Below the pieces are notes generated by a model that saw nothing but the letters and a program-made list of their open reading frames with translations, was not told the DNA's origin and searched no databases. The translations under genes and the position numbers were made by a program. A stretch of DNA of 64,000 nucleotides from Amphiscolops sp. MND2022 (taxonomy: Eukaryota). The stretch is taken from positions 20,958,001 through 21,022,000 of the forward strand of contig OZ076409.1 of the NCBI GenBank assembly GCA_964187785.1, given 5' to 3'. This document shows, piece after piece, positions 14,619-64,000 of the stretch; within the stretch, counting starts at the first letter, position 1; the number at the start of each line of letters is the position of its first letter.

Positions 14619-15046
14619 AATGTTCGGCAGACGAATTCCGCTGTCAGCATGGCGGGAAATGCATCGGCGTTTCTCACTTGTGTGACGGGATCATGGACTG
14701 CTACAGAGGAGAAGACGAGCACTCAGAAAACTGTGGGGGGTCATTTGGGGGAGCCAAGCTGTCAGATGCAATCAACTGCTTGCAAATACAGGACCAGGGA
14801 GGTGGTGACACTGTAAGGTCCATCGACAGTCGGTCAGTGGAAGTACGAGGTCAAACTGAGGTCAAGGTTCAGAACGAGGGAGACAAGCAATCAGGAAGCG
14901 TGTATCCCCAAAATAGCAGAGATAGCGAAGAACTGCTAAAGTTGTGTCAATCATCAGATTTTGTTATTGGTTCGAATAATGTTATTTCTTTTACCACAAA
15001 TATAGCTATCATTATTTTCCTACCTTTGAAAAATCTGATTTTTTGA
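14619..15046 (+). CDS. Terminal exon: LDLa repeat, spacer and hydrophobic C-terminus (GPI-anchor-signal-like)
   Basis: ttctag acceptor, in frame with the 11533-11691 exon: ECSADEFRCQHGGKCIGVSHLCDGIMDCYRGEDEHSENC...VIGSNNVISFTTNIAIIIFLPLKNLIF*. AATAAA at 15047-15052. Confidence 0.8.
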
Positions 15047-41309: not shown

Positions 41310-42915
41310 TGTTGAAGCTACTAAAACATTAAACAGGGGAAATGTCAGAAAAAATATCGAAGAAGAAACGGAAAACGAAACTAGGAACTTATACACTCCT
41401 GCTAAATCTGTTAGGATAAATGCAACCCAAAATGTCTGGATAAATGACGCCCCGAGCACGAATCGTAACCGAATCTCTCCTTTGTTTCCTTTTACTGGAT
41501 TTCTCAGGCATTCAGACTAAGAAAAAATGATGTGAGCGAGGCAATAACAAAATTAACGTTTCACTCCTCTTCTCTGGATCTTTCACTAGATCCTTGTAAT
41601 TAGCTCAAAATTTCTTTGCGAAAACAGATAGACAGGATTATTAAAAGTAGAATCAAAGCAACAAAGATTATGCAAACTGAATTAAGTTAACAAAATTATC
41701 AGATTTTATCTGGAACATTTCCACGCAAATTAGTGATTGAGGTCGGTACAAAATAACAGTACTATGTGACGGCAAAACAAAAATATGCCTTCGCTAAAAC
41801 GCTGCATGAACTCACACCTAGTTCAGCTCGATGTGCTTCCGATGCGAGGAATTTCAAATAAGGTACGCTTCCTCGCGATTCGGTTTTCCGATTCATCTGA
41901 CTTTAAAGTAAAAATGGGAATCAACTTCCTACCGAAGCCCAGTTTGGCGTCCAATCTTCGTCGTTCCCCGCCAATTCGTGACGCCGAAGCTGAAGTTGGA
42001 AAAGAAAGTCTGTGAACCTAGCTACTAACGCGGGAAAAATGAATAATCCATCGTCGAATATGTATTTATGAACTCCCCAGTGATAATTATCTTATTTATT
42101 GAGCATTTCTTATGCATATTTAATTTTATAACCGGTGTTTGTCGGGTGTTTCACATCAGGTTTTTCATGCCGTCTTCTTGGTCTACCTCAGGTTAGTTTC
42201 TCTGGTTCTTTCCTCAGGCGTTCTCGTATTATCGTGGTTCTCGCAGCTCTGCGGGTGCTGCGACAGTACGTTTTCAACTGTGTTAAAAAAACTGAGCGAG
42301 ATCAAGGGCTCCTCACAATAACCTTCCGTTGAATTTTTTCTGACAGTGTGGGATTTTTTGCCGAAAAAAAGTTTTCGAATTCAAAATTACGAAAATAAAA
42401 TTGCACAAGAACATAGTTTTTGACGTTATATTCGCTTGCTTTTACATTTTGCCGGGAAGATTATGGGGTTTAACTCCAATGTGGACCTTTGCGTATTTTT
42501 TCAAAATTTAATTTTAACATTACTGTTTTCACTTATAGCACTTATAACAAAAATACCCTATGTCCGAATTCTTGACGCTTTTTCCGAATTGTATTCAATT
42601 TTGCGAGGATTAGGACCAAGGAAAAAATTGGAAACTCTATATGCAGGAAATAGTTTTCAGATTTGTAGAGATTTTTTAGTTTTTAAAACTTTCCATCAAA
42701 CGATCAAGCTGTAAGGTGTCTGATTTTTCCTAGTGTCGTCTTAGCAGATTATACAAATAAATATTGCAGTGCCATTGCGCTCCTTGTAATTACCCTTCAT
42801 TCGAGGCCTATTCCATCAAAACTGACTGAGTTGAAGAAATTTCGTAAAACTCTGAACAATCTCTGAAATGGAAGGCAAACTTTTTATATTTTCCACAGTG
42901 TAAATACATGCCAAC

Positions 42916-43164
42916 CTGTCGTTCAACGTAATGACAGTTCTAGCAATGCCGTCGCTCTTCTGTCTCTTTCTCTCCAATTCGTTGAACTTCTCCTTCAGTC
43001 GCTCGTCCCCCATTTCGTGGAAGAGGGATTGTCTGAAGTAGGTCTTGCCTGCACCCTTCATTCCTGTCAGCATCACTCTCACCTGTCTGGAGCTACTGTC
43101 TAACAGCAGGGACTCCATAGTGCTCGCTATCTTGTGCAGACGACCCTCGTGTTCTCGAGAAGAC
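42916..43164 (-). CDS. GTPase-like gene, P-loop exon (donor site uncertain)
   Basis: gttcag acceptor; VRVMLTGMKGAGKT is a beta-strand followed by Walker A/G1. The donor after 42916 gives phase 2, a donor ~8 nt further gives phase 1; an intervening exon near 36590-36662 is possible. Confidence 0.75.
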
Positions 43165-44184
43165 CTGAACAATCACGCCCTTTCTTATCACATTTTCTAA
43201 CTGCTACATTAGAGTGCACTGCACGTACGTAAACATTGTTATCGAAGGATTTTAGTAAAAAATGATCTTCATAATACACCTTGTTTTATACCTTGTTTAG
43301 GCAAAAATGGAAGTTAAAATCTGCACTATTAGATATTAAGAAATTGAGTCTGCTGAACCAACGAAACTCAGAAGACTTTTAACTTTTTCTGTCAGTCAGT
43401 GAAAATCGAGCTCTCTTCAAGTCATCAGATCTTTGACTAAGGATAATTACAACCTTCACAAATTGCCTACTAGATGAATGAAAAAGGAAAGCATGAAGAA
43501 TTGAATTGACGTTCAGAACCCAACTTGGCAGGTGCTTTGAACTTTTGCAGATCAGCAAATCAGCAAAGTCTTTTTGGTGAAAACAAATCTAAGCGTCTTT
43601 GAAAACTAAAAATTCCTGTTCTTTCGATAGTCACTTCGGGAGCTTGACAGAAGTCAAATGCAATTTTCTCTCGTAACAGACTACCCTAGTTGAAAGTGTT
43701 CGAAACGTTTACATGCTTTAATAGGTTGCAAGGTAACTTTACTAGGCTTTTGGAAGCTGCTTTGTGAACTTTTCATGCTCAACATTTTCATGCTGCGTTT
43801 CAGGTATTTATAAGGATTTCTATACAATTTGGAGGGTTTTCACTGCAGCACCAAAGAAATTATCCAATGTGAAATTATATGAGAAGGTTGACAAGAATTT
43901 TGCATTTTCTTGAGAACCTCGTTAGGAATCTTGGCAAGATTCTCATCAAGAGGGTTAAAAATATGTGCGACTTTGCAAGATCTTGCCGAGAGTTGAAAGA
44001 ACAAAGCTAATGAATGTGAACGAAAATCAACGAAAAATGTCGCCAGCTGCGGCTTGATGATCGTATTCATTATGATGGCGAAGAGGTTCACGCTACCAAG
44101 CAAGCTATCACATTTTGAAATTCAATTTTCCAAAACTTCGCATATATTCAAACTTGCAACATGTCGTTTTGCAACGACGTTATT

Positions 44185-44932: not shown

Positions 44933-45772
44933 GGTCCGAAGTGGATATAATTTTCAGAAGTGCGGCCGGAAAAATAAGTGAAACAACATCAGAGAAACTA
45001 GAGAGTTCACAAGAATCACCAACTTTGTGAAGGCTTTCAAAAAAATCATGCAAAAGTTCGAAAAAACGCTGGTTTATCTCACATATAAACTACTGCTGAC
45101 GAACTATTCTCTACTGCAATATTGCTTCTAAAAACTGAGAAATTTGTTCTAGTATTCAAATTTGTTTGTTCCTTGATGAAGTTTTTTTATATTTAATTTT
45201 TAAGATTATTATTTGAACAAATAGTACTATTGAATTTCAACGTTGAACCAAATTTGAACCAAATAGCTAGAATAAGAGGCATTTTGCTTCAGCAACGAAG
45301 AAACGCCGACGCAAAATCCAATTACTCAGAAGCGTGGGAAATTCACAAGTAACGTGGTAAATTAAAATAATGATTTAGATTAATCGAAGATTTGGATGGA
45401 AATTATTCTGGCAAATTCAGAAAGCAATCGATTTTACTTCATATTGGCAATCGAATTCCCTCTGGAAACTGAAGAATTTTGAATAACAAACTACATTAAA
45501 TTGGAAGTACATCATCAATTAAATAGGCTATTATATGATACAGAGCAACTTAACGTTTACCTCGATATACTTTAAATTACTGGGTATTATAATTACTTTT
45601 GTTACATTTTAGCCATCTTGAAAACTAGTTCGATTTTTACCATATCGCAAATATGGTACTTCGGAGCATCTGCATCGTATAAAAAATAACAATAATTTCA
45701 ATACCGGCTTTTCCTAAATTTTCAGTCAGGAAAACTTGTAGCAAAAGTGATCAATAAAGATGTTCTAATTAC

Positions 45773-46486
45773 TGTAACGGCAACTGCCCATGTCAAAATT
45801 TTCGAAGCAAAAATTCGTTCAAATCTGACGTGGCACTCAAACATGCTCCAGACGAAAGACCTGTCAGAAAAGCATATCAGAAATCAGAAATCGCCCCCCG
45901 CGAGAGACGACGAGAAGAGAAGACGTAGAAATCAGTCCCTAGAACACGGTGATGTGCCCATCTTTGGCGTTTACACTACATAGGTAGCAGAAACCTGTGT
46001 TCCAGATGCTCGCCTGAAGATCCTGCGGTGTCCTGTGCGGTGACGAGCGCTAGCGCTGGGAAGCCATGGTCGATTCGTTCCTGTTAGATAACTCAAACTT
46101 CTGATGTTGTTATGCTTATTGTGCTTTCCTTGTTGTAGTAGATTGATTTGCTCGAGAGCTGCCCATTTAACATCTGTAGTTACCCCTTTTGATGTCGATT
46201 TTATCAGATTCTCCAATACTATGGCTCAACATCCTCCTGTTTTCAGCCCCCTTTTTAAAGGCTAATTGAGCAGTGGTCTTGAGACATGCAAGATGCCCGT
46301 TACTTTTAGCAGTTACAGACTAGGACCAGGCCAGAGAGTTTCCAACAAGACGGTTCCCCACCTTGGGACTGGCTCCTTCGGAGGGAAAATGAGCTAGGGC
46401 CGCGGAGATCTAAGTCCCGGATTATATTCGCTGTTCTAGTTCCTCCACTCTACGTTGCGGTTCAAGCGCCAGCGCTTATCGTTACA
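45773..46486 (+). repeat. Gypsy 5' LTR (~714 bp)
   Basis: Terminal inverted repeat TGTAACG...CGTTACA. The right end is inferred because the 3' LTR is truncated. Confidence 0.75.
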
Positions 46487-46501
46487 TAGAACCTCATTTT
46501 T

Positions 46502-46519
46502 TGGCGACCACAGAGGGAT
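46502..46519 (+). promoter_or_regulatory. Primer-binding site, tRNA-Arg-like
   Basis: TGGCGACCACAGAGGGAT resembles the complement of the tRNA-Arg(UCG) 3' end (TGGCGACCACGAAGGGA). Confidence 0.65.
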
Positions 46520-47700
46520 CGTCTTGGGAAGCTTTCCCTAGCGGTTTTTAAAAGATCTGGCCCCCTGGTGATCAGCGCCAAGCCCGTTTCGACTCTGGAA
46601 GAGGAGAGAGAAGCAGAGTTTTACCTTTTTTAGTCGTGTGACATTCTACTGGAACTGGGAGAGGCGTTGAACCAGAGAAAACCCGAAAAAATCACGTTTT
46701 CAGGTGCGAAAATGGTATTTTTAGGTGTTTTGGAAGGAAATCGGTATTTTTGGGTGATGTGTTGTGTGCCCATCAGCGGGTATCTTTTTGCAGGTGCCGA
46801 AGACCGTAGCACGTGGCTACGGGTGTTTAACAGGTTTTGCAAGCTATTTTCAGCCATTTTATGCCATGCAAGAAGGTAACTGGTGGATGGCTGACCATGA
46901 ACCAGCGAGGCGAAGGGGAAGTCAAATTGTGTGTTGCCTACTTTCTACTCCCATTTCTCGTGGAGACGTCCTAGAGGTATGGTTTTTGGTGGACAGCAAG
47001 TGCAATTGCAGACGATGCTAATGGTCTAAACCGCGTGTCTCTATCTGGTCTGGATGTGGAGAAAAAGCGTGGTGAAGGTGCACCCCCTGTGACCGGACGC
47101 GTCGCTCAAATGGCTCATGGTCGGTGAAAATTTTGAAAATGCACCTTTTTCGACGGGGAATCGTTGGTGCAGGTCAGTAATGTTTTATTGTAGATGTAAC
47201 GACACCCAACGAAGTGCTTTTCTGCAAAAAAGATAGCACTTGCGTGAAAAAACCCTGATTTTGCGTTTTTTTTTGGTGTTTTTCGTGGTTTTGAGCACTT
47301 GTGCTCAGCGGAACCAGGAAAACTTCGTGAAAAGTGTTGCAAAAAGCAGCTGCAAGGCTCGAGAAAGCTAGTACGAGGCACAGAAGGCCGTAATTTTGCC
47401 TTTGGTTGTGATAAAAGTGCCGATCTAGCACCAGAAAATTGCAAAAAAGTGGAATTTTGACCAAAAAGGTACCCAGAAACACAGGCGTACACTTGTGTAG
47501 AAGTGTGAAAAAGCAGTGTACGGTGTTTTGTCGAGCGTAGTAAACCCACAGGACACTAACTGTAACTTTTACAGCGGATTCAGGCAGCCTGGGGCTGACA
47601 CGGTGCAAAAAACCGGTAATTTGAGGTGTTTTTAATCATCGAAAGTGCATAGTCTGAAAGTCTTGAGAGTGAAGCTTAGTGGAACAGAGCAAGTCTGAAC

Positions 47701-47974
47701 GCTCTTATTTTCTGTTTTCGCAATAAAAATAGCGCATTGTGGTGAAAACCGCGTGCAAAAACTCCTTTTCAGTGTCGAGAAAAGTTGAAAAACCTTGAAT
47801 TTTAGTTAGTTTCAGGAGTGTCCTAGCACACAATTAAAACCCCCTGGGCACTCTGTCTTTTTGTTAGTCAGGAGCTTTCGTGCTCTCATTTTCTGTTTCT
47901 ATAGTAAAAATAACGCATTGTAGTGAAAACCGCGTGCAAAAATTTCTTTTCGGTGCTGAGAAAAGTGGAAAAAC
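47701..47974 (+). repeat. Two ~93-bp direct repeats in the Gypsy leader
   Basis: GCTCT(T/C)ATTTTCTGTTT...CGCATTGT(G/A)GTGAAAACCGCGTGCAAAAA...GAGAAAAGT at 47701 and 47882. Confidence 0.85.
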
Positions 47975-49194
47975 GCACTGAATTTGATCAATTTTCCACA
48001 AAATCGGACTGTCTCTGAGCTAGGGTCGGGTCATCGATTCCTGAACCCTAGCCAAGAAGTGGTTGAATTTTCGTAACCACCACAATAATTAACGTTAGTG
48101 CCGAAAATTTGGTGGGCGTATCGCTCACCAAGGTCGAGAAAAACTCTCTGACGTTTTGACTGCAAAGAAGCGGCAAAGGACCGAAAAAATCCAAAACTGC
48201 AGGACTGTCGGTGCCTTATATCCAACGGGCACAACAAATTGAGGGTTTATCCCAGTGTTACGGGTAGTGGGGCAACACGTAGGTCCAACTTTGCCTGCCG
48301 TATCACTTTCAGAGGTGATCCTCTTGGCCAATATGTGAAAAAAGTCGTCAAAAACAGTGTTTTTTCGTGTACAACGTACATAGTGGGCCGGAACTTCAAA
48401 TAAGCGCTTGCGCTTCAATTCGACCATATCAGCGGCATTGTAGGTGCCCTTTGGCATAAACTATCAAGTTTGGTGCCGATCTGTGCGATACTTGTCGAGG
48501 AAATAGGAAAAACGCGGCGCCCAAAAAAGTGCGCAAAAAGGCAGTTTTTTCTTAATTTTTCCAAGTAACCCGGGTACCTTAGCCGACGGGTGGGGCTATA
48601 TTGCAGCCCACCATCGTAACTTGTGCTAGTTCCTACGTTGCTGCAGAGAATTTGAGCTTGCTAGCTTTTTCCAGTGGACCGCAATCTTGAAAAAGACGTG
48701 ACAAACAGTGTATTTCGGTACATAGTGGTACCGCACGTCTGTACCTAGGTGAAACTGTGTAGAAGGGGCGCAGCTCAAAACTGTGTTCATTTTCGTGAAC
48801 CTACGCGAACCTAAGATCTGCTGGTCAATTTTGGGCTTGATACAGCGCTTCCAGCGCACACACGAGCCTCTTGAGTGTTGTTGTGCGATTTGTGGAAAAT
48901 CCAAAATTTCTTTGAAATTCTTCCTGTGAGTGACCGGAGACTTTTGGCCCCAAACCAGGTTGATTTACTGACCCAGTGTGCTTGTGGGAAAGCGCTGTGC
49001 GAATTTGAGCAGCCTACGAGCCTTAAAACGCATTTCGAGAAATTTGGGACGTTGTGAAACAGTCAAATTTTTTAAGTCCACACCGAGACGAGCCTAGAGC
49101 TAACAGCGACTCGACAACTCCCGCGTTCTTCGAGATTTCTTTAAAGGCTACGCCCGAATCGTTGACACCTGCTCTGCCATTGGCATCGTATGTA

Positions 49195-51547
49195 ATGGTC
49201 CTACCAGGCCTGGAAAAGCTTGACATGAGTTCGCAGTCATGGGTGACCATAGGATCCACAATGGACGGTTCGCATTTTTCAGACGAAATGTCTGACGAAG
49301 TCACTATCGAGCAACAACGCAAAGAGGAATTGGCCGCCATGGTCCCTCCCTCTGAGGGTTCCGTTGCATCTGGAAGCTCTCGTCGAACCGAGCAATGGGT
49401 CGAAGAAACCTGTCGTGAAAGAACCAATGAAGCAGAAGAGGAGTGGCCCAACTCGAACATGACCAACGAACTTGCAGCTGAGGAAGGGTGCTCTCGCGCA
49501 CCCCTAGGAGAGAAGACGAGCTCCCGCCTACAGATCACGGTGGACGAGGATCTTACGTACACGGGGAACACGAGTTGTGCGAGACCGCAAGGGTCTGGGT
49601 TCACTCGAGGTAACACTAGAGTTTGTGCCTATGGCAAACACAAGAGAGTGCGACCACCCATGATAAATGTAGGTGAACGTCAATTTGAGGTGCCTCGTAC
49701 GAGGAGCGTGGCAGGTTCAGTGGCATCGTCCCAACGATCTTCGGTGTATAAAGCCGCAATATTGGAAGCCCAAGCTGAGACCCAACGTGCCTTAGCTGAA
49801 CTGGCTAGCACTCGTGCTGGGTGCAATGACCAACATCGTGCCATCGCTGAAAATATGAGAACGTTGCAGACAACGATGCAAGAAGGATTGCAGGTCAGTG
49901 ATCAACTGCGAACCGCGCAGAATACGCAGAGTGCTCGCGTAGATGCACTAGGCCACAGAATGGGTGAGATGAATGACCTTTTGATGGCCCGTGAACTTCG
50001 TGTGGAAACCCAGATCAATGATTTGAGTAACCAAATGCACACTGTGCTCAATGCTATCAACATCATGAGGCGCGAGAGGTCCCTCCCACGACAATCTGGT
50101 GCCACTGAAGGTGTGCCAGTCGCGGATTCAATTAAAATTCCGGAGTCATCGCACCTGGGTCGGGCAACGAAACCCGAGCTGGCGAGTGCATTGAAGCCTA
50201 GCACCTCCAAGTCGACGACGCCTGAAACCCGAACCAAGGATCCCGTACTCATCATGGCTGATGTGGAGCGTAAACCTGCACGGGTGCAGGTAAGAGGGCC
50301 CCACGACTCCTCGTCGATGAGTCAAATAACCTCCTCCGTAGTTCGAAGTGCCACCCGAGACCAAGGTGTGGACCCAATGTCACCTATCTATCTAGATACT
50401 TCTACCGAAGTTGACTTATCCTGTACCAAGGCCACACTAGGGTCCCAGACTGATGGAGCTGCGTATGCGACGGCCCCTACCATGGCTTCTGGAACGAACT
50501 CCCTGTATCTGACCGCCGACTGGACAGCCGAGGACGGAATGCCCTCGGGCGCTCCTTGTGCGAGTAGCACTCGCAAGAAAGAAGACATAGCGAACCTCTC
50601 AGTACGAGCCACGCATGGCAGTGACGACGGTACTGATGAAGTGGCACCCAAGGAAGGAGAGGCTGAAGTCATCTCTCCCGAGCAATTGAGGTTCACTGCC
50701 GCCATTTCCAAAGCGATGTCCAAAGAACTAGCACCGTTGCTTGCGGGACGTGACCTGGCTCAAACCAAACCCAGCGTGTATCGAGGCTCTAAGGACGGGT
50801 CTATTGATGGCTGGATCTTAGTGATGCAGCAATACTTGAAAAGAGCCCAAACCAAAGTCTCGGCCGAAGATCGGGCCTGGAGCATTATTGGTCATCTCGA
50901 GGGTGAGGCTCGCAACTACATCATCAACAAGGCTGAGTCTGAACGTGACACCCCCGAAAAGGTGTTCGAGTTGCTATCTAGCCGATTTGGCGCGGGAGGA
51001 AATCGTATGCAGGTGCGGCAGACCTTCCAAAGCCGCGTCCAACAAGAAAAAGAGGACTGGATGCAGTACTTAGACGCTTTAGAGGGTCTCAGGAGCCAAG
51101 GTTTCCCGCAAGAAAGTATCATTACCAAACGCAATGAAATCGTGCAGCGCTTCATGGAAGCTTCATTGAAGGTGTGCGAGATCCAGTGTTGAGGCGTGAA
51201 CTTGCCATAGTATACGCCTCGGAGACTTTTCTTACCGAACCCCCTACCGTAGAGTCCTTGCGATTTACCACACGTCAGCTGCAACGAAATCGTCTCAGAC
51301 CCACCCAACCTCAACAACCCTATGATCCCAGATTAGCCATGAGGTCTAGACCTCATCCTTTCGCACCACTGCCGCCGAACAAGATGATTATGCCGCAGGG
51401 CGACTTGCCACCTCCGGCGCCCCCCAAAATGTCCCAGCTCCCGCTGTCCCAGCTCCCGCCCGAGCGCCGGTAGGTGCTTGTTTTCACTGTGGGCAAAACG
51501 GACATTTTGCTCGCGAGTGCCCCAATCGTGACCAAGCCCGAAAACCA
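49195..51547 (+). CDS. gag: Gypsy Gag: long disordered/coiled-coil N-terminus, capsid, CCHC knuckle; two frame disruptions
   Basis: Capsid-like PSVYRG...IDGW...HLEGEAR...LSSRFG...FQSRVQ. An 11-bp duplication at 51149-51170 and a -1 shift at ~51425. CFHCGQNGHFAREC (51479-51520) is in the Pol frame. Start codon uncertain. Confidence 0.85.
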
Positions 51548-54500
51548 ATGACTGCCTCCGAACCAGAGGGCGTAAAGGTAACCACGGAAGACACGACCGA
51601 TGGCATCCTTGAAGGTCATCCGGGGATCTATCAATGCACGAGCTGTGGACTTTTCGATCAGGCGGAAGTGCAATGTGGTGAGCACTCCCATGCGCCGAAG
51701 CCCAGTGACGAGTTAGCCTACAATCGATGGGCTGAGGTCGAATCAGCTGGCATCGCCGCGCACACCGTACCTTTGGAAGATGACCGTGTGTTGATGCTAC
51801 ATCCAGCGGAACCGCCTGCGTTCCACACTCCGATGACATTCACTTGTGGTGCTAAGCAAGTTCAGACCTGCTTGGAACCCACGACGTTCGACCCGCAAGG
51901 ACGGACGCTGATTTCGATTCACCTGTTGCTGGCAGCTGAGCAAACACGTAGGCCGACGCTAACCCTGGCGAAGCTATGGGTCGAATTGTCTATCCTCTGC
52001 AAACGAAACGAGTTGCCTCGACCGAAAGAATGGTACGCTCCGGGAGAGTCTACGACTCTGACAACATATTCCCCAGTGCCAGTCTGTGCTTCAATGGATG
52101 GAGTGGATATGAAATTCGAAGCCTGTGTGGTGGTGGATGTATTTCCCCCTGGCATTTGTCTGGGTCCCCAGGAGCTCAAATGCTATAACATCAATCATCA
52201 GGAGCCCACCGGTGAAGCGCGTATAGATGAGCGTGCGTCGCTCGTGGTCTCTTTCGTGGTGCCTCATGCAGCACCTATTCCGCTGCGAGGACTGGTGGAC
52301 ACTGGCTCGGGCGTCTCCATACTGACGTTTTCCGCCTTTAACAGAGTGGCAGCTCGAACTGGAACGGTCCTTAAACCCTACCAAGTTGACCTGTACGCAG
52401 CCAACGGGAAGACAATAAAGACCTACGGCCTCGCAGAACATATCCATTTCCAGCTGGGAGGATACGAACTTGAAACGAACTTTGTGGTGGTAGATGACGC
52501 AATGGGTGTGGAAGACTTCCTACTTGGTCGGAACTTTCTCCGCTCCTACCAGGTGTTAGTGGATCTAACATCTATGAAGATTGTGGTGCGAGCACCAGTG
52601 AAGCCTGTGTGGCATCATGCTCACGCACAGGTAGGTGATACTTCGATAGCTACCCCAGTCGTTTTGGATAGTGACTTGGTTCTGCAACCTTTCGAACGTG
52701 CGGTGGCTAGAGCCAAGCTCGTCACCAATGCACTAGAGCCGCTGATTTTTCAAAGCGTAGCGCTCAATGTCTCTTTGTCTGACACTACGTTGCACAATGT
52801 CGTCTTTTTAGAGGACAGCGTGGCCACTGTCAGTGAGACAGGGACACTCTTTGTGAGCCTGATAAATCTCACCAGCAACCCTCAACGCATGCGGTGTGGT
52901 GTACAACTGGGCACCGTAGTACCCATAACGGTAGTATACCAAGCAGTACCTCAGTGTCTGGACTCTCCCACTACAACCCGCACAAAAACTGACGCCGACG
53001 ACAGTCGTGCAAATTTTGTTCATAAAATTTATAGTGAAGTGAATCTGTCCACTACTTCTGAGTTAACCTCTTCTTCAGAATTTGTGTTTTTGTCCTCAAC
53101 TGACCCTAGCGAGGCAGGACTATCGGAGCGCGAAATTCGCAAGCGAACGGACCCAGAGCTAATGGCTCCGATTCCTGGGCCAGAATCTCAGCTACAGGCG
53201 GTTAAGGATTTATGGGGCGCTAGCGCCTGCGAGTCTCTCAGTAACCTCCTCGATGAATTCGATGAGCTATTCATGAAACACAAGGCTGACATCGGTCGGT
53301 GCACTATCGCTAAGCACACCGTGGAGGTGGAACCAGGGGCTGTACCACATCGCGAAGGTGCTCGCCGGATGTCCCCTGAGAAGGCCGAACGTGCCAATCA
53401 GGAGGTGCGGAACCTCTTAGCTCTGGGAATGATACAGCCCTCGCTGTCCCCTTGGGCGAGCGGCATTGTAATGGTGAAAAAGAAAAACGGGGAGTTGCGC
53501 TTTTGCTGCGACTTCCGCCCGTTAAATGAGGTAACCATTAAGGATGCCTATCCCTTGCCCCGTATTGATGAAAGCCTGGCACGGCTAGGCAAGGCGAAGA
53601 TTTATACCAGCATAGACCTTGCTTGGGCCTTTTGGCAAATTCCTGTGCGGAAGGCGGATCGCCACAAAACCGCTTTTGCTTGTGAACTAGGACTTTTTGA
53701 GTGGCGGCGAATGCCATTTGGTATGTGCAATGCATCTGCCACGTTTCAGCGATCAATAGCGCGTGCGCTAAGGAATATTGTCAATCGTGAGGGCAGCATG
53801 GTCATGGCCTACATTGATGATATCGTGATTGCCACAGAGACTGTGAAAGACCATATGGTACGCCTACGTGAAGTCTTTGAATGCCTCCGTGAAGCCGGTT
53901 TCAAAATGCGCGTGGCCAAATGCGATTTCATGAAATCGGAGATCAAGTACTTGGGACGAGTGGTTTCCGCAGAAGGAGTGAAGCCCGACCCGAAAGCCGT
54001 CGTCAAGTTGCGCGATTGGGAAATTCCCCGTAACAAGACGGAGATGCAGAGCTTCCTAGGATTTGCCAATTACTATCGCGAATTCATCCCTTGGCACGCT
54101 AAGCTGGTTGCACCCCTGCACGCCGTCACTGGACTGAATGCCACCTTCGCATGGGGTCCTGAGCAACAAACCGCATTCAATGAGATCAAAAAAGCCCTGA
54201 TCGAGGCAACTGCGCTCGCGCAGCCTGATTCCGAAGGAGAGTTTGTGTTGGACACTGACGCTAGTGCTGTCGCCATTTCTGGTATCCTGCACCAGTGGCA
54301 AGGTCCTCCGGGTGAACGACGCCTGAGACCGATAGTTTACGGTAGCAAGAAGCTCACTACCACACAAGGTAAATACGGAGCTCCCAAGCTTGAAATGTTC
54401 GCCGCCTACTATTTCATAGTGAAAAACCACAGCTATTTATGTCCCCGGAAATTCACCCTGCGGGTAGACAACCAAGCCTTGTCCTGGTTAAAAACCTACT

Positions 54501-57499
54501 CCACGGATCAAGCGCTAATCGGCCGATGGATTATGACCCTGGAGAAGTATCACTTTCGCGTGGAACACCGCCCAAGAACTCAACATCGAAACGCCAATGG
54601 CTTGAGCAAACGAACCAACGAGTACCGATGCCGAGAGAAACAGCTTGCACAGCAGCCAGCCGCGGGCGAACGCTGGAATTTCCTTTCAGCTGACGAATTT
54701 GATAAACTACCCGTCGCCCCATGGTTCGACCTTCAGGGTCGAGTCATCCCGAATCATCCCGAACTACCTGCGCACCTGCAGAACTTGGAGCCTAAGGCTC
54801 CCAACCAATTGCTACGCGTGCTTCGCCGCACAAAACGAGCGAGCAGGAGAGACAGACAAGCGAAAGCATTCGCAGCCCCCTTGCCGCCTCCGCCTTTCCT
54901 TGCTCTGCAACCGCACGAGGATGCCTATCCAGACTACCCTGAGGACTGGATTGATGTCACTGATGAAGCACGCGAAGATTATCTATTACCGACGCATGCC
55001 GTAAATGTACCCTCACGTACCGTCTATGCTATTGCTGGGGCGAATCCTGTTGCGTTGCAAGGTACTCCCTCGGGTGTACGCGACTCAATTATGGCTCTTA
55101 AAGACATCAACACTGAACTTCACGAACATGCTCACACCGTGCATGGTATCAAAGACTTGATCCTAGCCCAAAACCGTGATGTTCATGTGCTAGCACTCAA
55201 AAGGTTGGTGCTAAACGAACCCATCCATCATGACGTGTTTCCCGAGAGCGTGCGTGAGTTCGCACGCAACTACTACCGTCAGAAGAAAACTCTCCTGTTC
55301 ATTAACAAGAATGGTGTGCTTTGCGTACGATACCCTCCCAACCAACGTCCCCTGCACGAACGTCCGTGCATGATCGTCATGCCTCAACTGTACCAGCATG
55401 AGATTTTATTCCGCGCGCATGACGCCATGGGACATCAAGGTATCTCCAAAGTGGTGGCTCGGATTCAAGAACGTCACACATGGCCTGGTATTCGACGCAG
55501 CGTGGGCCGTTACGTTGGTCAATGCCTCACCTGTCAACAGGTTCGAGATAAGCCTGGTGACGTCCGATTCCACCTAAAGAACATTCAGAGCGGGTACTTC
55601 AACGAATTGGTCCAATATGATCATCTGAAGATCTGCCCCTCGGACAGTAATAACACTGGCATCTTGGTCATAATTGACCATTTCTCCAAGTTCGCGGAAG
55701 CAGTTCCCTGTAGTCATCACGACTACGACGCTGTGACCACCTCTCGGTTGCTGCTGCAAAAGTGGTTCGCCCGTCATGGCACACCCACTAGAATGCAGTC
55801 TGACAATGCTCCAAATTTGACAGCTGAGGTATCCAACGAATTCCTAAAAGCAGCCCACGTTACCAAGGTAACCTCTACGGCTAGCCATCCGAGAACCCAA
55901 GGCTTGGTGGAGCGTCAAAACCGGACATTATTAACCCTACTGCGAGTTTTTTGCTCCCGCCGTATGCGCGACTGGGACCAATGTCTTGATGAGGTCATGG
56001 GCGCCTACAACTCTACGAGGCACGCCACCACTGGCTTCTCACCCTACATGCTGACCCGTGGTGTAGAGAAGGCCATCCCTCTCACGTTTTTCTATCCCGA
56101 ATTTGCAGCCAAATCATTCGAGTCGCATGAGGCGTATGTCGATCATGTATTGGCTCGCCAGCAGGAAATACATGACTTGGTACGGCGTAACACGCACCAA
56201 GCCCAATTGCGTCAAAAGTTGAAGTACGACCGTGCTATACAAGCGCGAGCTTACCAAGTAGGCGAGCTCGTCTGGGTATTTTGCCGCTACGTACCGCAAA
56301 AGGGTTCCCCGAAATTGATGCGTGCTTGGCGAGGCCCGCACAAGGTTGTACAAGTCTTTCAGGACGGTCGTGTCTATGTACTAGACACCGGTAAAAAGGT
56401 TCATTTTGAGCGTCTTAAACCGCACCACAGTGGCCCACTTGAACTTGCTACTGCACACACGGACAGTGGTGAGGTGGTGGTACTTATGGACCCCGAACCT
56501 GAACGTTCCGTCGACGTAGTTGATGACGACAAGTCTTTATCGTCGTATAAACCCGAACAACTACTTTCAGAAGCGTCCGATGCATCTTTGCCCTCACATC
56601 GACGTCACTGGATGGACACTCGACTACGCACGAAACTTCGCGCAGGCGGCTCCCGCCCGCATTATCAGCAATTTGACTATTCCACCTCGGGTACAGATGA
56701 CGAACTATCCGATGCCATGTTGCCGATACCTCCTAATCCAGTTGACGAGGATCTAGTGGAGCCTGCGGCTCCTCCGGCTGCGTTGGATCAGTCGATATCC
56801 CCCGCCCGTGTACTACCTCAACTGTTCTCTGACCATGAGCGCCTGCGCTCACCGTCTCCACAGATATCCTCCTCCGAAAAAGAAACATCGTTACCAGGAA
56901 CCTCAGCATCCTTGTTGACGAATCCCTCGCTAACCAATTTTCTTAGTAACTATCCCATATGGCCGGCCGCCCCTCCGATTCCTCTCAAATCTGCCAGCAG
57001 CGACAGCAACGTTCAGCCCGATCTGCCTGAAGTTCCCGAGACTTCGCCAGGAGCGGGGACCGCTCCTTCTTTTAAAAGGGGGAGGGGGAGACCACCCAAG
57101 GCACAGAAGAAACGGCTGATCCGAGCGAAAGCAAAGACGAGGAAGAAAGAAACACCGAGAAATGCCGAAACCGAAACTGCGATACAGGCCGAAACGGAAG
57201 CTCCCAGAACTGCAGAGACGCTAACAGAGGCATCTGCAACTGCTCTTAGGTATCAACTAAGGAGTAAACGGCAGCCGCGCTACAAGTGTGGAACCTGCGG
57301 GCTGCGAGATTGTGTCTGCCTATTAGCTGTGAATGAGAACCGGAGGGTTCCCATTGGAGCCCGGGGAGTTCCTCCGGAAGAGAGAGAAAACTTGGTGTAC
57401 CGCCTCACGGTGCGGGCCGAGAAAACCTACTCAGCTGTAGAGCGGTCCGGAGACCACCCTGTAGACACTATCCTGGAGAAGTTGTCACTCCCGGGGTAG
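51548..57499 (+). CDS. pol: Gypsy Pol (PR, RT, RNase H, integrase, long C-terminal extension)
   Basis: LVDTGS (D at 52298), YIDD (53810), LDTDAS, H-H-CC zinc motif, D-D-E (QYDH, SDNA, LVERQN), GPH (GPY/F-like), KRGRGRPPK; 1983 aa uninterrupted. Confidence 0.97.
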   Translation: MTASEPEGVKVTTEDTTDGILEGHPGIYQCTSCGLFDQAEVQCGEHSHAPKPSDELAYNRWAEVESAGIAAHTVPLEDDRVLMLHPAEPPAFHTPMTFTCGAKQVQTCLEPTTFDPQGRTLISIHLLLAAEQTRRPTLTLAKLWVELSILCKRNELPRPKEWYAPGESTTLTTYSPVPVCASMDGVDMKFEACVVVDVFPPGICLGPQELKCYNINHQEPTGEARIDERASLVVSFVVPHAAPIPLRGLVDTGSGVSILTFSAFNRVAARTGTVLKPYQVDLYAANGKTIKTYGLAEHIHFQLGGYELETNFVVVDDAMGVEDFLLGRNFLRSYQVLVDLTSMKIVVRAPVKPVWHHAHAQVGDTSIATPVVLDSDLVLQPFERAVARAKLVTNALEPLIFQSVALNVSLSDTTLHNVVFLEDSVATVSETGTLFVSLINLTSNPQRMRCGVQLGTVVPITVVYQAVPQCLDSPTTTRTKTDADDSRANFVHKIYSEVNLSTTSELTSSSEFVFLSSTDPSEAGLSEREIRKRTDPELMAPIPGPESQLQAVKDLWGASACESLSNLLDEFDELFMKHKADIGRCTIAKHTVEVEPGAVPHREGARRMSPEKAERANQEVRNLLALGMIQPSLSPWASGIVMVKKKNGELRFCCDFRPLNEVTIKDAYPLPRIDESLARLGKAKIYTSIDLAWAFWQIPVRKADRHKTAFACELGLFEWRRMPFGMCNASATFQRSIARALRNIVNREGSMVMAYIDDIVIATETVKDHMVRLREVFECLREAGFKMRVAKCDFMKSEIKYLGRVVSAEGVKPDPKAVVKLRDWEIPRNKTEMQSFLGFANYYREFIPWHAKLVAPLHAVTGLNATFAWGPEQQTAFNEIKKALIEATALAQPDSEGEFVLDTDASAVAISGILHQWQGPPGERRLRPIVYGSKKLTTTQGKYGAPKLEMFAAYYFIVKNHSYLCPRKFTLRVDNQALSWLKTYSTDQALIGRWIMTLEKYHFRVEHRPRTQHRNANGLSKRTNEYRCREKQLAQQPAAGERWNFLSADEFDKLPVAPWFDLQGRVIPNHPELPAHLQNLEPKAPNQLLRVLRRTKRASRRDRQAKAFAAPLPPPPFLALQPHEDAYPDYPEDWIDVTDEAREDYLLPTHAVNVPSRTVYAIAGANPVALQGTPSGVRDSIMALKDINTELHEHAHTVHGIKDLILAQNRDVHVLALKRLVLNEPIHHDVFPESVREFARNYYRQKKTLLFINKNGVLCVRYPPNQRPLHERPCMIVMPQLYQHEILFRAHDAMGHQGISKVVARIQERHTWPGIRRSVGRYVGQCLTCQQVRDKPGDVRFHLKNIQSGYFNELVQYDHLKICPSDSNNTGILVIIDHFSKFAEAVPCSHHDYDAVTTSRLLLQKWFARHGTPTRMQSDNAPNLTAEVSNEFLKAAHVTKVTSTASHPRTQGLVERQNRTLLTLLRVFCSRRMRDWDQCLDEVMGAYNSTRHATTGFSPYMLTRGVEKAIPLTFFYPEFAAKSFESHEAYVDHVLARQQEIHDLVRRNTHQAQLRQKLKYDRAIQARAYQVGELVWVFCRYVPQKGSPKLMRAWRGPHKVVQVFQDGRVYVLDTGKKVHFERLKPHHSGPLELATAHTDSGEVVVLMDPEPERSVDVVDDDKSLSSYKPEQLLSEASDASLPSHRRHWMDTRLRTKLRAGGSRPHYQQFDYSTSGTDDELSDAMLPIPPNPVDEDLVEPAAPPAALDQSISPARVLPQLFSDHERLRSPSPQISSSEKETSLPGTSASLLTNPSLTNFLSNYPIWPAAPPIPLKSASSDSNVQPDLPEVPETSPGAGTAPSFKRGRGRPPKAQKKRLIRAKAKTRKKETPRNAETETAIQAETEAPRTAETLTEASATALRYQLRSKRQPRYKCGTCGLRDCVCLLAVNENRRVPIGARGVPPEERENLVYRLTVRAEKTYSAVERSGDHPVDTILEKLSLPG

Positions 57500-57570
57500 C
57501 GAAGGCCCCTTGTCCTAGGTTTAAGGAGTGGACTAGCGATGGAAAGGGCCTGGAGTTTACCCTGCCCACG

Positions 57571-58620
57571 GTGTTGCCCCCTGTGCCCAGTAATATTGCG
57601 TTTGGACCATTCAATTTTGAAAGGGAACCTGTGCAGATGGCCCGATGCATCACTGCCGACTTGTTATGCGATAAGTATGGAGTCCAGGTGGAACCAGGAG
57701 GGGTATACAGCCCGGCTCCTCACTGGTGGCTGCTGGTAACAGCTCCACGAGTGGAGGCGATGGTGGAACCGTTGAATCTGTTATCCTGTCAAGAGAGTCT
57801 GAGGACCCTCACCACTGTGGACTTAATACTTTGCTTCCATATCATAGACTGGTACCGAGGCAAGATGAAGTTTGCATGGTGGCTGGAATTAATTATCACA
57901 TGTTTCGCCACCTATCCCAGAATTCGACTGTTAGACGAGTGGACTCACACCTTCGAGATCCCCCTGTTCCCCAAAGCCGCCCTGGAAACTTTAGATGCGT
58001 GGGTAGAGGCCGGCAGCGACAATCGAGCGATGCCCCGCTCAGTGTGGCAAGACCTGGCTGCAGTCCAAGGGCGTACGCCTCGCGTGTGTCTGCCCTCCGA
58101 CAATGGTCCCGGACGAGAGATTGTTTACCCGGGAGCCCTGTATCCGAATTCCGCCGAACATGTTTCTTACGATGAAGCTGATTTCTTGCAGGTTGAGGGC
58201 GACATAGTGTTAGCATGCCCTGCTGACCTAAAAACCAACTCTGCCTCCCTGCGATATGTGCTGCGGGAGTGCAGCATGGAAGATGTATTTGCCTTACGAC
58301 CTAAAGTGGGCGAGATTCTCACTATCCCGCCTGATGTGAACCCCAACCCTAATCAAAGTATTCACCTGTTAATAGTCCGTGCTAACCAGCGCGCACCGCT
58401 GCTGACCGATGACTACTTGCGCTGCATGACGTACTTGATACAGCGCCTGATAGACAAAGGATCCACACGGGTCCACTTACCCATTCTGGACCCCGAGAGA
58501 CCGGCTTTCTCGTTGGTCAATCTGTACCATACTCTAACGAACATGTTCGAGGGTACTGGTATTCGCGTGGTTTTGCATAGCCGCGTATATGTATCGATAT
58601 TAACTATAGGGCTGGAGTAG
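57571..58620 (+). CDS. Tandem TARG1/Poa1p-like macrodomain ORF, probably the Pol C-terminus via a -1 shift
   Basis: Two units follow the TARG1 motif order: MARCITADL / VLACPADL, PGGV / KVGEI, WLLVT / HLLIVR, FHIID / LPILD, CFATYPRIRLL / MFEGTGIRVVL. The frame is open from 57337, overlapping the pol stop. Confidence 0.65.
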   Translation: MLPPVPSNIAFGPFNFEREPVQMARCITADLLCDKYGVQVEPGGVYSPAPHWWLLVTAPRVEAMVEPLNLLSCQESLRTLTTVDLILCFHIIDWYRGKMKFAWWLELIITCFATYPRIRLLDEWTHTFEIPLFPKAALETLDAWVEAGSDNRAMPRSVWQDLAAVQGRTPRVCLPSDNGPGREIVYPGALYPNSAEHVSYDEADFLQVEGDIVLACPADLKTNSASLRYVLRECSMEDVFALRPKVGEILTIPPDVNPNPNQSIHLLIVRANQRAPLLTDDYLRCMTYLIQRLIDKGSTRVHLPILDPERPAFSLVNLYHTLTNMFEGTGIRVVLHSRVYVSILTIGLE

Positions 58621-58883
58621 CCTTATCATTTTAGTTGTCCCCATTTTTCCTTTGCCCTCAGTCTTTGTAACAATTCTTGTAACAACCATGGAAGAGTCTT
58701 GAAATGCTCTCGAGATGTTAATTTGTCATGTTGTTTACTCAAAGGTTTTGTTCTAGTTCGTTAGTTAGTTAAAGTTAAATTTTAAGTTTGTAGTGGCCCC
58801 CTTACGGAGCCGATGTTGCGTTGCTGCAATTGAGGGACGAACCGGCCCACGGCTCGCTCCAGAAAGAACTTGCCCCTGTAAGC

Positions 58884-58903
58884 CTAACAGTGGTCCTTTT
58901 TAG
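58884..58903 (+). promoter_or_regulatory. Putative branch point and 3' splice acceptor for the downstream ORF
   Basis: CTAAC...CCTTTTTAG ends 12 nt before the ATG at 58916. Confidence 0.5.
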
Positions 58904-58915
58904 ACCTATGCATTA

Positions 58916-61900
58916 ATGGCCCATTGCCCAAACAGTTCAGCGCCTGCAACAGGGTCTAGTAGTGCAAGGCCCCAGGAATCTGCGCGAGCGCAGAGGGTCA
59001 ATCAGGCCCAATATGTCGAAGAGAGGCTGCGGGACGGTCTTTCGCCAGTAGCCGTAGCTGGGGTGGCTGCCTTACTGACCCAGCTTGAATCGATGCAAAT
59101 GCTGCCAAATGCATCCTTGTCGATCACTACGGAGGTGGCAGGCTATCGTCGCACCTTGACGTGCACCAACAATGCCTGGGATGGGCACGACCTGACTCAC
59201 CAGTTCTTGGACGAAAGATCAATCACAGTGCATGGCCCCAGCCAGGGCACCAGATTCGAACAAGAAGCATCACTGCGTATGATGCCCGTCAACGTCCCAT
59301 CGCTGCCTTCTATTTCGGCACCAAATCCAGTGCAGATGACGCCGTATTCTAGCTCGCTTGCTTATGGGGCACCATATGGAACCCAGGCAACGATGACGCA
59401 AAACACTACCAATCAATCAGCCTCAAGTCGGGAGCCCTCGGGGTCCCAACTGCCATCAGTGCCTAATCTAAATCTTATCGGACGGAGTGCCAGCGAGCAA
59501 GCGGTGATTGTGGCCCTGCAGGCGGTCGCCAACTACCCCAACTCCTCTGACTTCGTTCGTGCAGTTGAGCAAAGGATTCCCGGATTGGCACACTATTTGC
59601 AAGCCGCAGCTCAGCCCTCGGGCTGTGTCACCCCACCCACCACCCTAGCCGAAGCTGTGTCTATGGAAGCAGAAACCACGGCTGGACCAAGCACCAGCGC
59701 CATAACATATCCCCGTGAGGAAACTGGACGGAAGCGACTTACTGAGGAAAACATCGTCGCTACACGCCATAATTCCGTGACCGACAGTCCGACCAGTCGT
59801 CCCCCTCCGGACAAGCGAGCAGATGTACCCCAGCAATCGCAAATGAAGAGTGTAGTGGTCGTGAGGCCTCCATATCGCGTCGGCCACCTGGGCGTAGGCG
59901 CGCCTCAAATGTCCATGGAAGAGGCCATCAACCGCTACGGCAGTGTGGATGCGAATCCTGAAACGAATCCTGTGCCCTTGGGCACAGGCTCTGCCAACAT
60001 GTCCCTGGAGGTGCCCGAGACTGTCGAAGAGACCAGCCCTCCCGCCTTTCTTCCCCCGTCAGATGATGTATCCGGCTCCGTGGTAACTAGCGATAGTAAA
60101 CGCATCTGGATGGCAGCAGAGTGTTTGCACCCGAACACATGTGCGATTAGAAGGAGAGCACCGCCGTCGGACGCCGAGCAAAGAGAGGTGAGCAGAATCA
60201 CCATTGCGGCTCAAATAACTCGATCGCTACGTGCCCGTGATGCGGACCTAAGTGAGCAAGCCTGGGAACAGCGTGCTCGAGAGCAACTGCCCGCCACACC
60301 CAACAACTACATGGCTCGCCTGCAGCACGACCTCACCGAGCAATTTCCCGCCAGGTACATATTGCGCGAAGGAGAAACCTGGGAGGCAAACGCCCGCTAC
60401 GCTCGCAATATCAGGTCAATGAAGCCCCTCTTGAAAGCAGCTCTGCAGCGTGCGCGCTATTGTGTAGCGGTAGATTCGACATTCAAGAGTGATCTGCCCA
60501 TCGATAACCTTCTGCCCGATGTGCTGGTGTTAACAATGCCACTCTCCCGCTTCGCCGAGGTCGCAGAGATGGTCGCGGTTATGTACGACCCAAACCTGAG
60601 AGGGTCCCTAAGAGAGCCGCCCCCGCGACGTGTAGTCTTCACCAACTTGATCGACCACATGGCTTGTGAAGGACTGCTACACAACCTGGATGCCCTCATG
60701 GCAGATACCCGTAGACCTGGGAATGTGGCGACCTTAGTAAACGTTGTTGCGGATGCAATGGAGCGTGCAGCAGGGATCCTTCGGGGTCGTCTGGGAGCGC
60801 TCGCGCTCTTTACATCCCCGCCGGGATTCATGTATTGGCAACGAAGCTTGCAGCAGTTTGTGTACATCTTGTCTGAGGTATGCAAGGCGCGCCGAATCGA
60901 GTTTGCTATATGTGCGCCAAATCTTCGGGTTGATCGCGGAGACCTACGCCCCGATGCATTGTCATACCCTGCCTTCTTTGCTGCTGTATCAAGAGTGCTA
61001 ATCACTGTGGAACGATCGGGAAATGCACAACTGACTATCGACGATGCCATACTGTTCGACCATGGAATGTGTATGGGGCGAATGGCCTTCGACTTGGACG
61101 GGAATCGCGTCATGCGAGCATCTAACATGAGTGAGCGAGAGGCCGTTCGACGCTACAACTGGCTGGTGCGGAAAGACAAAGAGATTCCCGTACGAGCAGA
61201 GCTGGCAGAGCTCGTGAAGGAAATTGAAACATGGCCTGCCACACGCACGGTCGGAAGGACCATTCCCCAAATTCGGTTTGCCGCGGGAATAGAGCCTGTC
61301 AAGTTGCCCGTGGGCATGAAGCGGCTGTGGAGGCGACCAACTTGAAGACTGCAGTAGATGCCGCCGGATTAACGTATGCCGAATGGTATCAGTCCAGATT
61401 CGTGGACAGGACCTTGGCCGAGGTAGCTCAAGAGCTTAACTGTCCCTTGGAAGCCTTTTGCAACAGTCTCGGACTAGGCTGGAACATCGACGTAATAGCC
61501 TCTGAGTTCTTGCTCACCAATGTGCAGACTGACAAATTGTTGGAAACCATCGGCGAAACTACTGTAGGAGAGATGTTAGCGCTCGCGCTAACCATGGGCC
61601 CGACAAAGTTTGTGGCAGGTCCCCTGGCTATGTTAGTCGAGCTGGTAGTATCCAGTGATCTAGTCACCTTTTACAGCTACCTGATCCTCGCGCAGGGACA
61701 GCTACGCAGCCTAACTCGATGGGGTCACCTCCTAAATTCCAAGGACCAGCAATATTATGTCACCCAGCTGGAACGCATGCGTGCGTCCCTCCAACATTGG
61801 TTGTATTCCACCCTAGTGTTCGCCTCTGGCTTGTTCGTAGGCGTGGATCAATCGCAACCCCTCCACAATTCCGAGCGTCAACTCCCTGCGGAAACGGCGG

Positions 61901-63189
61901 GATTTCCTATGCCCCAGCAAATCGCCGATTTGACTCTGGCCGAAGTGGAGGACTTCGTGGCCGTTATGGCTTCCGTCCTGGCCCCAATCTTCGGTGCGGT
62001 CGGTGTGTGCCGGTATCCCACCAAACCACTGGCGAGAGCAGTGCAGGTGCACATGGTCTCCTTCTGCACCTATCTCCAAGGCCGCCCCCCACTGACCTAT
62101 CAGCGCATCGTGCAGGCCGTATTGAGTGGCGAGGTGCCGCATGGGTATACCACCTTGAAGTCGGAGAAACAGCTGGAAGAGAACTTGATGGGTCTGTTGC
62201 GTGCCCGCACACGAAAGGCGTGCCCTTTGACACGAGAATACGGCCAAGTCAACTGGTACTCCGCGCCTCTCAGCCTGAATGGAGTCCCCTTTAGATTCCC
62301 TTGGTCGCAGGAGTTTATACGCAAAGTGATCCGTGCCAGCACTAGTGCTGGTCCACCAATAGATCCCCTGTACGCCTTCAAGTGCATCACCTTCCCAAAT
62401 CACTACTGGAAGGAGCCACTGGGATGGCCCAGAGCAAAACCCGTTGGTCGCGCCCCTGAAGCCTTCAATCGCCAAATCCAGTATGTTGAATTGGCTCAGA
62501 TCCCAAATTGGATTGAAGGAGCAGCTCAGACTCGTCAGAGGAACCTGCAAAGACGCGTGACTCCGTTCCCTAGAAGAGCTGCCTGGAGACCGCAGGCCAA
62601 GATGACGATGTCAGGGGATATGTCCATCGTCCAGCACGATGAGATCAATTCCGTGCTAGGCCCCGAAGCCCGCGCAGAGTGGGAAGGACATTGCTTGGAG
62701 CTGGAGAATGCCAGCTTCCCAAAATGGAAGCGAGCTTGCGAGCTCTGGAGTCAGCCTGGCTGGGTCTCCAAACGAATATCCTTGGCCGTGGAGAGTAGAG
62801 CTGAACTCGAGAGACAACAGGCGTTCGCGCCTGCCATGCTGGCACCCACAATGGCCATGTCATTAAGTCAGCCCATCGACCGGCCCGTGACTCTGGATTT
62901 GCCTACCCATGTTCTACAGCCAGAGCCTGTGAGTCCACCATCGACACAGGCCAGTCCTCAGTCATCGCAACCCCAAACCGGAGAACACGCCGCTGAACTG
63001 ACCCCTAACACTATCCTGGTGCAGCCGATCGCCGATTTAGCGCTCCCAGAAGACCTATCAGACTCGGAAACAGTAGTTACTGTGGTTCCTGCTCAACGTA
63101 GAGCGTCAGTTGCGTCGGAAGATGCCAGCAATCCAGGAACTCCCGATGATGCCATAAAGAATCGAGCTCGACGCAGCTCAGCCCAATAA
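58916..63189 (+). CDS. Large accessory ORF (~1,420 aa when one -1 shift at ~61320 is corrected) with a degenerate SGNH-like domain
   Basis: The 809-aa and 652-aa ORFs overlap and join as ...PVGMK/AAVEATNLK. Motifs CVAVDS, VLTMPLSR, VVFTNLID, LFTSPP, DLRP. AATAAA overlaps the stop. Confidence 0.75.
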
Positions 63190-63945
63190 ACCCTGCCGCC
63201 AATGGGAGCGTTCGCGCTCCCTATAGACTCTAAACTCCGCCGAAACTGTGCCTTCAAACTTATCGCTTTAACCGGTGCTACCCGTACATGGTGCAATTTT
63301 TTGTTCATAGTTATTACTTAGTTAATGTATTGTTAGTAATGCGCTGGGAGTACGGCCAATAGAGTGCGCCTGCCCCAGCTGCTTCGCCTACAAAAGTAAA
63401 CAAGAATCTATTACCAAAGAGAAACTGCTATTTTTGTTGCGCGCCGTTCGCGGTGTTTTTGAGTTGCCATAGCCAAGAAAAAGTCTTAGCCTTTTAGTTA
63501 CGGTTTTTGCTGTTTTTCCTTGTGTTTTGGTGTTCAAGCATCTTCTATCGACTGTCTAAGGAGTAGCCGAAGCGGCGCCCTCCCAAAAGAAGTTTTACGT
63601 TGCCCGAAATTGACCGAAAACTGTAAATGTCAAGTTGCATAAAAAAAGGAGATTTTAGCTGACCTTGGTCGCAAAAGAATTTTTAGCGAAAACTGCTTGC
63701 CCAAACGAGTTTTAACCGACTGAAAACCTTAGCTCTCGAGCTGGTGCTAAAACCTCGTTTGCATTTTTGTAAAAAATACTAGGCAGTAAAATTTTCCTTG
63801 AAAAAAACCGCGAAATTTGCCAAAAATAGTTGCTGAAAAACAAGGACTCGTCCTTGTCCCCTGTGGTGTGGATGATGGTTCCCAGCAGTCACTGCGATGC
63901 CGTTTCCAGACGAGGCCAGATGCCGCTTGCCAGGAACGACAAGCC

Positions 63946-64000
63946 AGAAGCCCGGGGAGTGATGTAACGGCAACTGCCCATGTCAAAATTTTCGAAGCAA
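63946..64000 (+). repeat. PPT and start of the Gypsy 3' LTR (from 63963)
   Basis: AGAAGCCCGGGGAGTGA followed by 38 nt identical to the 5' LTR start. Confidence 0.9.

Follow-up and report, generated by a model that had tools for sequence, protein, structure and literature searches.

The 64,000-nucleotide stretch of contig OZ076409.1 analysed here (Amphiscolops sp. MND2022, assembly GCA_964187785.1, positions 20,958,001 to 21,022,000 of the forward strand; hereafter the window) carries at its right end a retrotransposon with long terminal repeats (LTRs). A sequence-only reading had described it as a Gypsy element of about 18.9 kb with LTR starts 18,190 bp apart, a leader of about 2.7 kb, a Gag-Pol(-macro) region of roughly 3,100 codons and a second open reading frame (ORF) of about 1,420 codons, and had proposed recovering the full 3' LTR and the target-site duplication (TSD). 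Both were obtained from the adjoining assembly stretch, and the layout was borne out: the LTRs start at 45773 and 63963 (spacing 18,190 bp; 38/38 bases identical within the window), and the element spans 18,905 bp from 45773, its 3' end lying 677 bases beyond the window and reading CGTTACA followed by TAC. The two LTRs share 708 identities, with 5 mismatches and 1 gap over the compared span. The leader measures 2.74 kb (46486 to the ATG at 49225), ORF1 about 3,130 codons, and ORF2, taken from a sister copy without breaks, 1,426 codons. In the window copy frameshifts break both: ORF1 is hit near 51.1, 51.4 and 57.4 kb, and ORF2 once, near 61.3 kb.

Table 1 Features of the element (window coordinates; candidate and likely features are predictions).
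Feature	Position	Strand	Evidence
Left TSD TAC, 3 bp; second TAC directly after the 3' LTR	45770..45772	+	
5' LTR, 714 bp, TGTAACG...CGTTACA (7-bp terminal inverted repeat)	45773..46486	+	
Leader, non-coding, 2.74 kb (LTR end to ATG at 49225)	46487..49224	+	
Primer-binding site, complement of host tRNA-Arg(TCG) 3' end	46502..46518	+	matched to host tRNA gene
Candidate splice donor GTGAGT	48926..48931	+	
ORF1, single-frame Gag-Pol plus C-terminal extension of ~750 aa, ~3,130 codons	49225..58620	+	
Capsid-like region	50797..51123	+	weak PNMA match, E 0.0011, below cut-off
Zinc knuckle CX2CX4HX4C	51476..51526	+	PF00098, E 2e-06
Aspartic protease (DTG)	52280..52543	+	PF13975
Reverse transcriptase (YIDD) and RNase H, without tether domain	53474..54550	+	Ty3 best solved relative, E 3e-66
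Integrase: HHCC, core, GPY/F-type motif (GPH)	55382..56440	+	Ty3 best solved relative, E 5e-30
AT-hook-like RGRP motif (weak, E 0.3-0.9) and conserved CxxC-x4-CxC in integrase tail	57074..57319	+	
Tail folded domain 1, likely degenerate first macrodomain	57394..58071	+	
Predicted macrodomain, ALC1/TARG1 class	58147..58590	+	fold search
Candidate branch point, pyrimidine tract and AG acceptor 12 nt 5' of ORF2 ATG	58884..58903	+	
ORF2, 1,426 aa in unbroken copies	58916..63189	+	
Likely SGNH-hydrolase-fold domain, ORF2 residues ~510-705	60443..61030	+	predicted
Confidently predicted helical domain, ORF2 residues ~790-975	61283..61840	+	model
Purine-rich tract resembling a polypurine tract, adjoining 3' LTR	63941..63962	+	
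3' LTR start (whole 3' LTR 715 bp, running past the window)	63963..64000	+	

The element shares with Ty3/Gypsy (Metaviridae) the order protease, reverse transcriptase (RT), RNase H (RH), integrase, the YIDD motif, a zinc knuckle (CFHCGQNGHFAREC, of CX2CX4HX4C spacing), a GPY/F-type motif, TG..CA LTRs and a tRNA primer site. Comparison with the PDB gave 227 bits for Ty3, versus 159 for caulimovirus-type and at most 130 for retroviral structures, and the integrase WRGPH, aligned to YVGPF of Ty3, is retained in all five families compared. All the structural marks of Ty3/Gypsy are present except TSD length; a TSD of 4-6 bp is typical of the group, though outside its definition, and on this point the clade departs. 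Unlike other members of the group, it also has a length of 15-19 kb, a macro-fold integrase tail and a non-env ORF2 of 1,426 aa.

The left flank ATTAC had been taken for the TSD; the real duplication is the 3-mer TAC, found also after the 3' LTR. Twenty copies of the same family (family A: the window copy, nine from LTR pairs and ten chosen for a long ORF2 frame, this half being biased to ORF2 by selection) were examined together with 17 elements of seven sister families (B-H), found by probing the genome with divergent homologues. Identical 3-mers flank the TG..CA boundary in 18/20 family A copies, and matches of 4, 5, 6 or 7 bp occur in none, while cross-paired flanks of different family copies give a 3-mer match in 5/380. 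Over all 37 elements of the eight families the TSD is 3 bp in 34 and 4-6 bp in 0; one of the three others has another copy's 3' internal end as left flank, and the remaining two are possibly recombinants. The central TSD base is A/T in 30/34 elements. A symmetric preference for A at -4 and T at +4, chosen post hoc, was seen in 14 and 13 of 18 family A sites and in only 4 and 7 of 16 outside this family.

Troyka has been distinguished by its 3-bp TSD from other LTR elements, whose TSDs measure 4-6 bp (Kojima 2025, PMC12440569), and no other Gypsy with a 3-bp TSD was found in open-access text, a scope that leaves Repbase outside. Like Troyka (Kuafuorterviruses), the clade has a single Gag-Pol frame, the same domain order and no tether domain (PMC12440569, PMC11673190). 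Troyka elements, however, are described with CG..CG ends, short LTRs (100-400 bp) around an internal part not exceeding 7.7 kb, and a CX2CX8-10HX4C knuckle, GPY/F being absent (PMC12440569), and with the RT motif (I/V/L)ADD (Gong and Han 2024, PMC11673190), whereas here the termini are TG..CA in all eight families, the LTRs 714-773 bp and the internal part about 13-18 kb across the clade, with CX2CX4HX4C, GPH and YIDD. Membership in Troyka was rejected, since termini, knuckle, RT motif, GPY/F, LTR and internal size all differ. Because the clade departs from these other defining features, as given in Troyka's published descriptions, the 3-bp stagger would most simply have arisen independently.

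The clade is real, young, abundant and under selection. An LTR probe gave 2,035 candidates in the genome (40 scored, 98-100% identical), a 601-bp ORF2 probe 898 (40 scored, 99-100%), and the primer site matching tRNA-Arg, common to families A, G and H, 3,087 exact matches. The two LTRs of a copy differ from one another at 0-7 of about 714 sites among the 20 examined, and the mean pairwise distance in family A is 2.5%, in agreement with the youth proposed by the sequence-only reading. Its view of a complex lineage also stands, the cargo being present in 20/20 copies and the layout kept in four sister families (B, C, F and H; about 19.1-19.4 kb) whose ORF2 is 28-42% identical to that of family A. 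Families D, E and G, of about 15-16 kb, are without ORF2, and the ~1.1-1.3 kb after their ORF1 held no ORF2 remnant by tblastn. The sister families, 73-93% identical to family A in RT-RH, have one ORF1 frame of 2,999-3,292 codons with the shared tail (broken in one F copy), and the first family G copy examined is without a zinc-knuckle match. An unbroken ORF1 (3,194 codons stop to stop) occurs in 1/20 family A copies, the others being cut at scattered private sites, and ORF2 is intact in 2 of the first 10. Judged from the sequences, the cargo is very probably under purifying selection; the host-interaction role that the sequence-only reading ascribed to captured domains is putative.

Several observations accompany these families. 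One family copy has identical LTRs yet many internal breaks, which suggests mobilisation of defective copies in trans, or assembly errors. Five family G matches at 14.0-14.2 kb spacing (G000:C1:34053825-34111528) suggest a head-to-tail element array. The primer site of families B-F corresponds to tRNA-Lys(TTT), which also fits a tandem array of tRNA-Lys(TTT) with a 193-bp unit (G000:C7, from ~5.22 Mb); this pattern has 922 genome matches, most of those listed lying in the array. The leader of the window copy contains a direct repeat of 93 bp, with units at 47701-47793 and 47882-47974 (85%), and an Rfam search, leader included, gave 0 matches.

We favour, with a probability of about 60%, the reading that the element in the window is a broken member of a young Ty3/Gypsy-type clade of high copy number, with a 3-bp-stagger integrase, a non-catalytic macro-fold tether tail and a dispensable ORF2 bearing a disabled SGNH fold. 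Following known Ty3/Gypsy biology, reverse transcription would occur in a Gag particle, primed by tRNA-Arg, before integration, in which, to judge from the TSDs, the integrase active sites would cut host DNA 3 bp apart.

The integrase tail is retained in all eight families. Pfam gave nothing above cut-off on the Pol tail, a PDB sequence search nothing at E<0.001, and the ESM Atlas sub-0.9 leads only, the best being a Macro cluster at 0.86. The fold search nevertheless backed the macrodomain guessed from the sequence alone: the minimal macro fold was found, the nearest matches in fold are TARG1, DarG and Poa1p, all of them active hydrolases, and tail domain 1 scored 33.4 versus at most 19.4 among 30 controls. 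Alignment A3 comprised 53 of 150 listed fragments and 8 genomic frames. In the profile alignment Arg takes the position of TARG1 Lys84 and D-P-E-R that of the Gly-rich phosphate loop, the first-strand Asp (D307) is kept in 31/33 rows, and an Arg and a Glu are likewise invariant or nearly so. Unlike TARG1/DarG (ALC1-like) and the macro ORFs of fish endogenous retroviruses (PMC4977317), the domain lies in-frame behind an integrase, likely in tandem, with Lys84 changed to Arg and the Gly loop replaced. The loss of the Lys84/Asp125 dyad and of the Gly loop in this alignment lowers the case for a TARG1-type enzyme and leaves that for a macro fold unaffected.

Chromoviruses carry a chromodomain at the integrase tail position. 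Because the tail occupies this position, we tentatively favour a non-catalytic tether, in which the AT-hook-like motif, the Cys motif and the tandem macro folds may hold the intasome on target chromatin in a chromodomain-like manner, with no hydrolysis of ADP-ribose. The main rival is counter-defence, in which the tail, like viral macrodomains, would bind or remove ADP-ribose (PARP/sirtuin silencing or repair marks) on element protein, RNA or DNA by means of non-canonical residues. The enzymatic activity of the nearest folds, the near-invariant D307, Arg and Glu, the presence of the tail in every family and the activity of SCO6735 without either TARG1 catalytic residue (PMC5087735) all speak for this rival. 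We consider counter-defence unlikely all the same, as the acidic D-P-E in place of the phosphate loop fits diphosphate binding poorly, Lys84 is Arg and identity to TARG1 is only 12-13%.

ORFs in the env position are usually expressed from spliced subgenomic RNA, and by analogy ORF2 is probably translated in this way; the candidate donor GTGAGT at 48926 is the sole GTRAG in the first 3.6 kb. At 58908-58918 of the window (ATG CAT TAA TG) a two-codon upstream frame, its stop overlapping the ORF2 start, possibly serves translational control. Pfam gave no match to ORF2 above cut-off, a PDB sequence search nothing at E<0.001 and the ESM Atlas no lead; about 40% of the ORF2 model is below a predicted local distance difference test score (pLDDT) of 50, and Foldseek with this model against PDB and BFVD returned nothing at E<=0.001, the helical and C-terminal parts not having been folded alone. 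In the predicted SGNH domain the block I Ser of SGNH/GDSL is kept (xDST, S521 in 21/22 rows) and the block V DxxH is lost (xxxR-P at a site located by eye, where 22 rows have Arg). A candidate counterpart of block III (GxND) reads N577 (25/25) x x D580 H581. Profile comparison to the SGNH proteins of the genome was not significant. PF13472 matches at least 39 times in the genome, several of these matches belonging to multi-copy groups. A 185-codon frame at 31463-32020 (+) of the window (GDSL/SGNH match PF00657, E 1e-4, just under cut-off; DxxH-like DDVHL) is probably from another mobile element.

Animal Gypsy elements, as the sequence-only reading had it, usually carry env or nothing after pol; a GDSL/SGNH third ORF is known from Vesta elements of bdelloid rotifers (PMC5408684). 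Vesta elements, which likewise have TG..CA LTRs, would share with the clade an SGNH/GDSL fold where env is otherwise placed; their catalytic residues are intact and they carry a dUTPase (PMC5408684), whereas ORF2 has Arg at the His position and its likely fold lies inside a 1,426-aa protein. A further counterpart of the likely SGNH domain of ORF2 would be the OSK domain of Oskar (PMC4754038), a comparison that does not draw on sequence similarity and in which RNA binding by ORF2 is conjectural. We regard ORF2 as an optional accessory because families D, E and G are without it; as a provisional proposal, held with slightly less than even confidence, its SGNH fold may bind lipid or RNA without catalysis and aid particle localisation or transport, and could be lost or supplied in trans. 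A substitute for env, spreading the element from cell to cell or from soma to germline through membrane binding or a non-canonical lipase (Ser521 and the conserved N-x-x-D-H), seems improbable. Its env position with an acceptor-like site, the liposome binding of the ZfL2-1 SGNH domain (PMC3905857), the GDSL ORF3 of Vesta and a hydrophobic segment near residues 1016-1050, one of one or two modest ones, that families A, B, C, F and H have in common, speak for such a substitute. Set against them, no env-like match, fusion-protein fold (BFVD, PDB) or internal furin-type site was found in ORF2, and three families with near-identical LTR pairs do without it.

The size of the element, 18,905 bp, is large, as had been claimed, yet not unique, planarian Burro exceeding 30 kb (PMC6431247). 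Burro (GYPSM1) is likewise a giant Gypsy with thousands of copies and a fused polyprotein with accessory domains; it differs in a length above 30 kb, LTRs included, and in its BIR, MATH, BCL2 and ankyrin domains and in-frame env, and the excerpted text makes no mention of a macro or esterase domain (PMC6431247). Identity with Burro, as set apart by this description, was rejected, as ORF1 and ORF2 gave no BIR, MATH, BCL2, ankyrin or env Pfam matches.

Neither the 3-bp TSD with TG..CA ends nor its pairing with cargo of macro and SGNH type appears to have been reported in the searchable literature. That the clade is already catalogued in Repbase, GyDB or a genome paper, with 3-bp TSDs in TG..CA Gypsy known there, we think rather unlikely. 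Relatives in other assemblies speak for such an entry: since homologues P0096 and P0383 (the latter an outgroup lineage) have best matches of only 49% and 55% in this genome, the lineage reaches beyond it. Nevertheless, the 2025 Repbase-based paper reserves the 3-bp TSD for Troyka (PMC12440569), no description was found in open-access text (Repbase and GyDB lying outside that scope), and none of 40 ORF2-cluster members among those listed bears a name. A JGI metagenome scan gave no confirmed match, and IMG/VR one weak 29-residue match.

Hardly credible is a nested insertion or one-off capture of 57500-63900, which the sequence-only reading had named as its refuting case and which is excluded because 20/20 copies and four diverged sister families keep the layout, the segment having diverged in step with Pol, or a boundary error behind the 3-bp TSD, since the 4-bp match obtained in 6/20 copies by shifting the 3' end inward one base, the one point in its favour, reflects an A-rich chance rate, and the 5' LTR likewise closes with this terminal A towards the interior in 20/20 copies, with 3 bp in 18/20.

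Elsewhere in the window, two degraded head-to-tail BEL/Pao-type copies, ~4.65 kb apart, lie at ~21800-30800. Their Gag matches DUF1759 (26581-27330, E 3e-10), remnants of RT, RNase H and integrase were recognised by eye, and the known range of such elements fits an animal. An exon-like frame at 14597-15046 (+), in which inspection by eye shows a cysteine-rich repeat of the LDL-receptor class A type, suggests a host gene, and a short frame at 42816-43172 (-) has a P-loop-like GMKGAGKT motif.

In its widest and more speculative form, our reading would be of an undescribed clade of large Ty3/Gypsy elements present in more than one host genome, with a Troyka-independent 3-bp stagger and TG..CA ends, whose tandem macro tail might be an integrase targeting module of a new class, and whose ORF2 might be an Oskar-like SGNH pseudo-enzyme steering particles. 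How long a TSD is reflects how far apart the two integrase active sites lie on bent target DNA, a shorter stagger requiring sharper bending (PMC4422553). A Ty3-like integrase with a 3-bp stagger, if true, would be a near counterpart, supplied by nature, against which to judge how intasomes fix this spacing. Troyka, moreover, cannot be recognised by a 3-bp TSD alone. TSD settings of 4-6 bp are common defaults of LTR finders; at these settings, such elements, numerous in this genome, would be mis-bounded. The clade further provides a natural comparison with and without ORF2, and it points to a possible connection of macro folds with the integration of retrotransposons.
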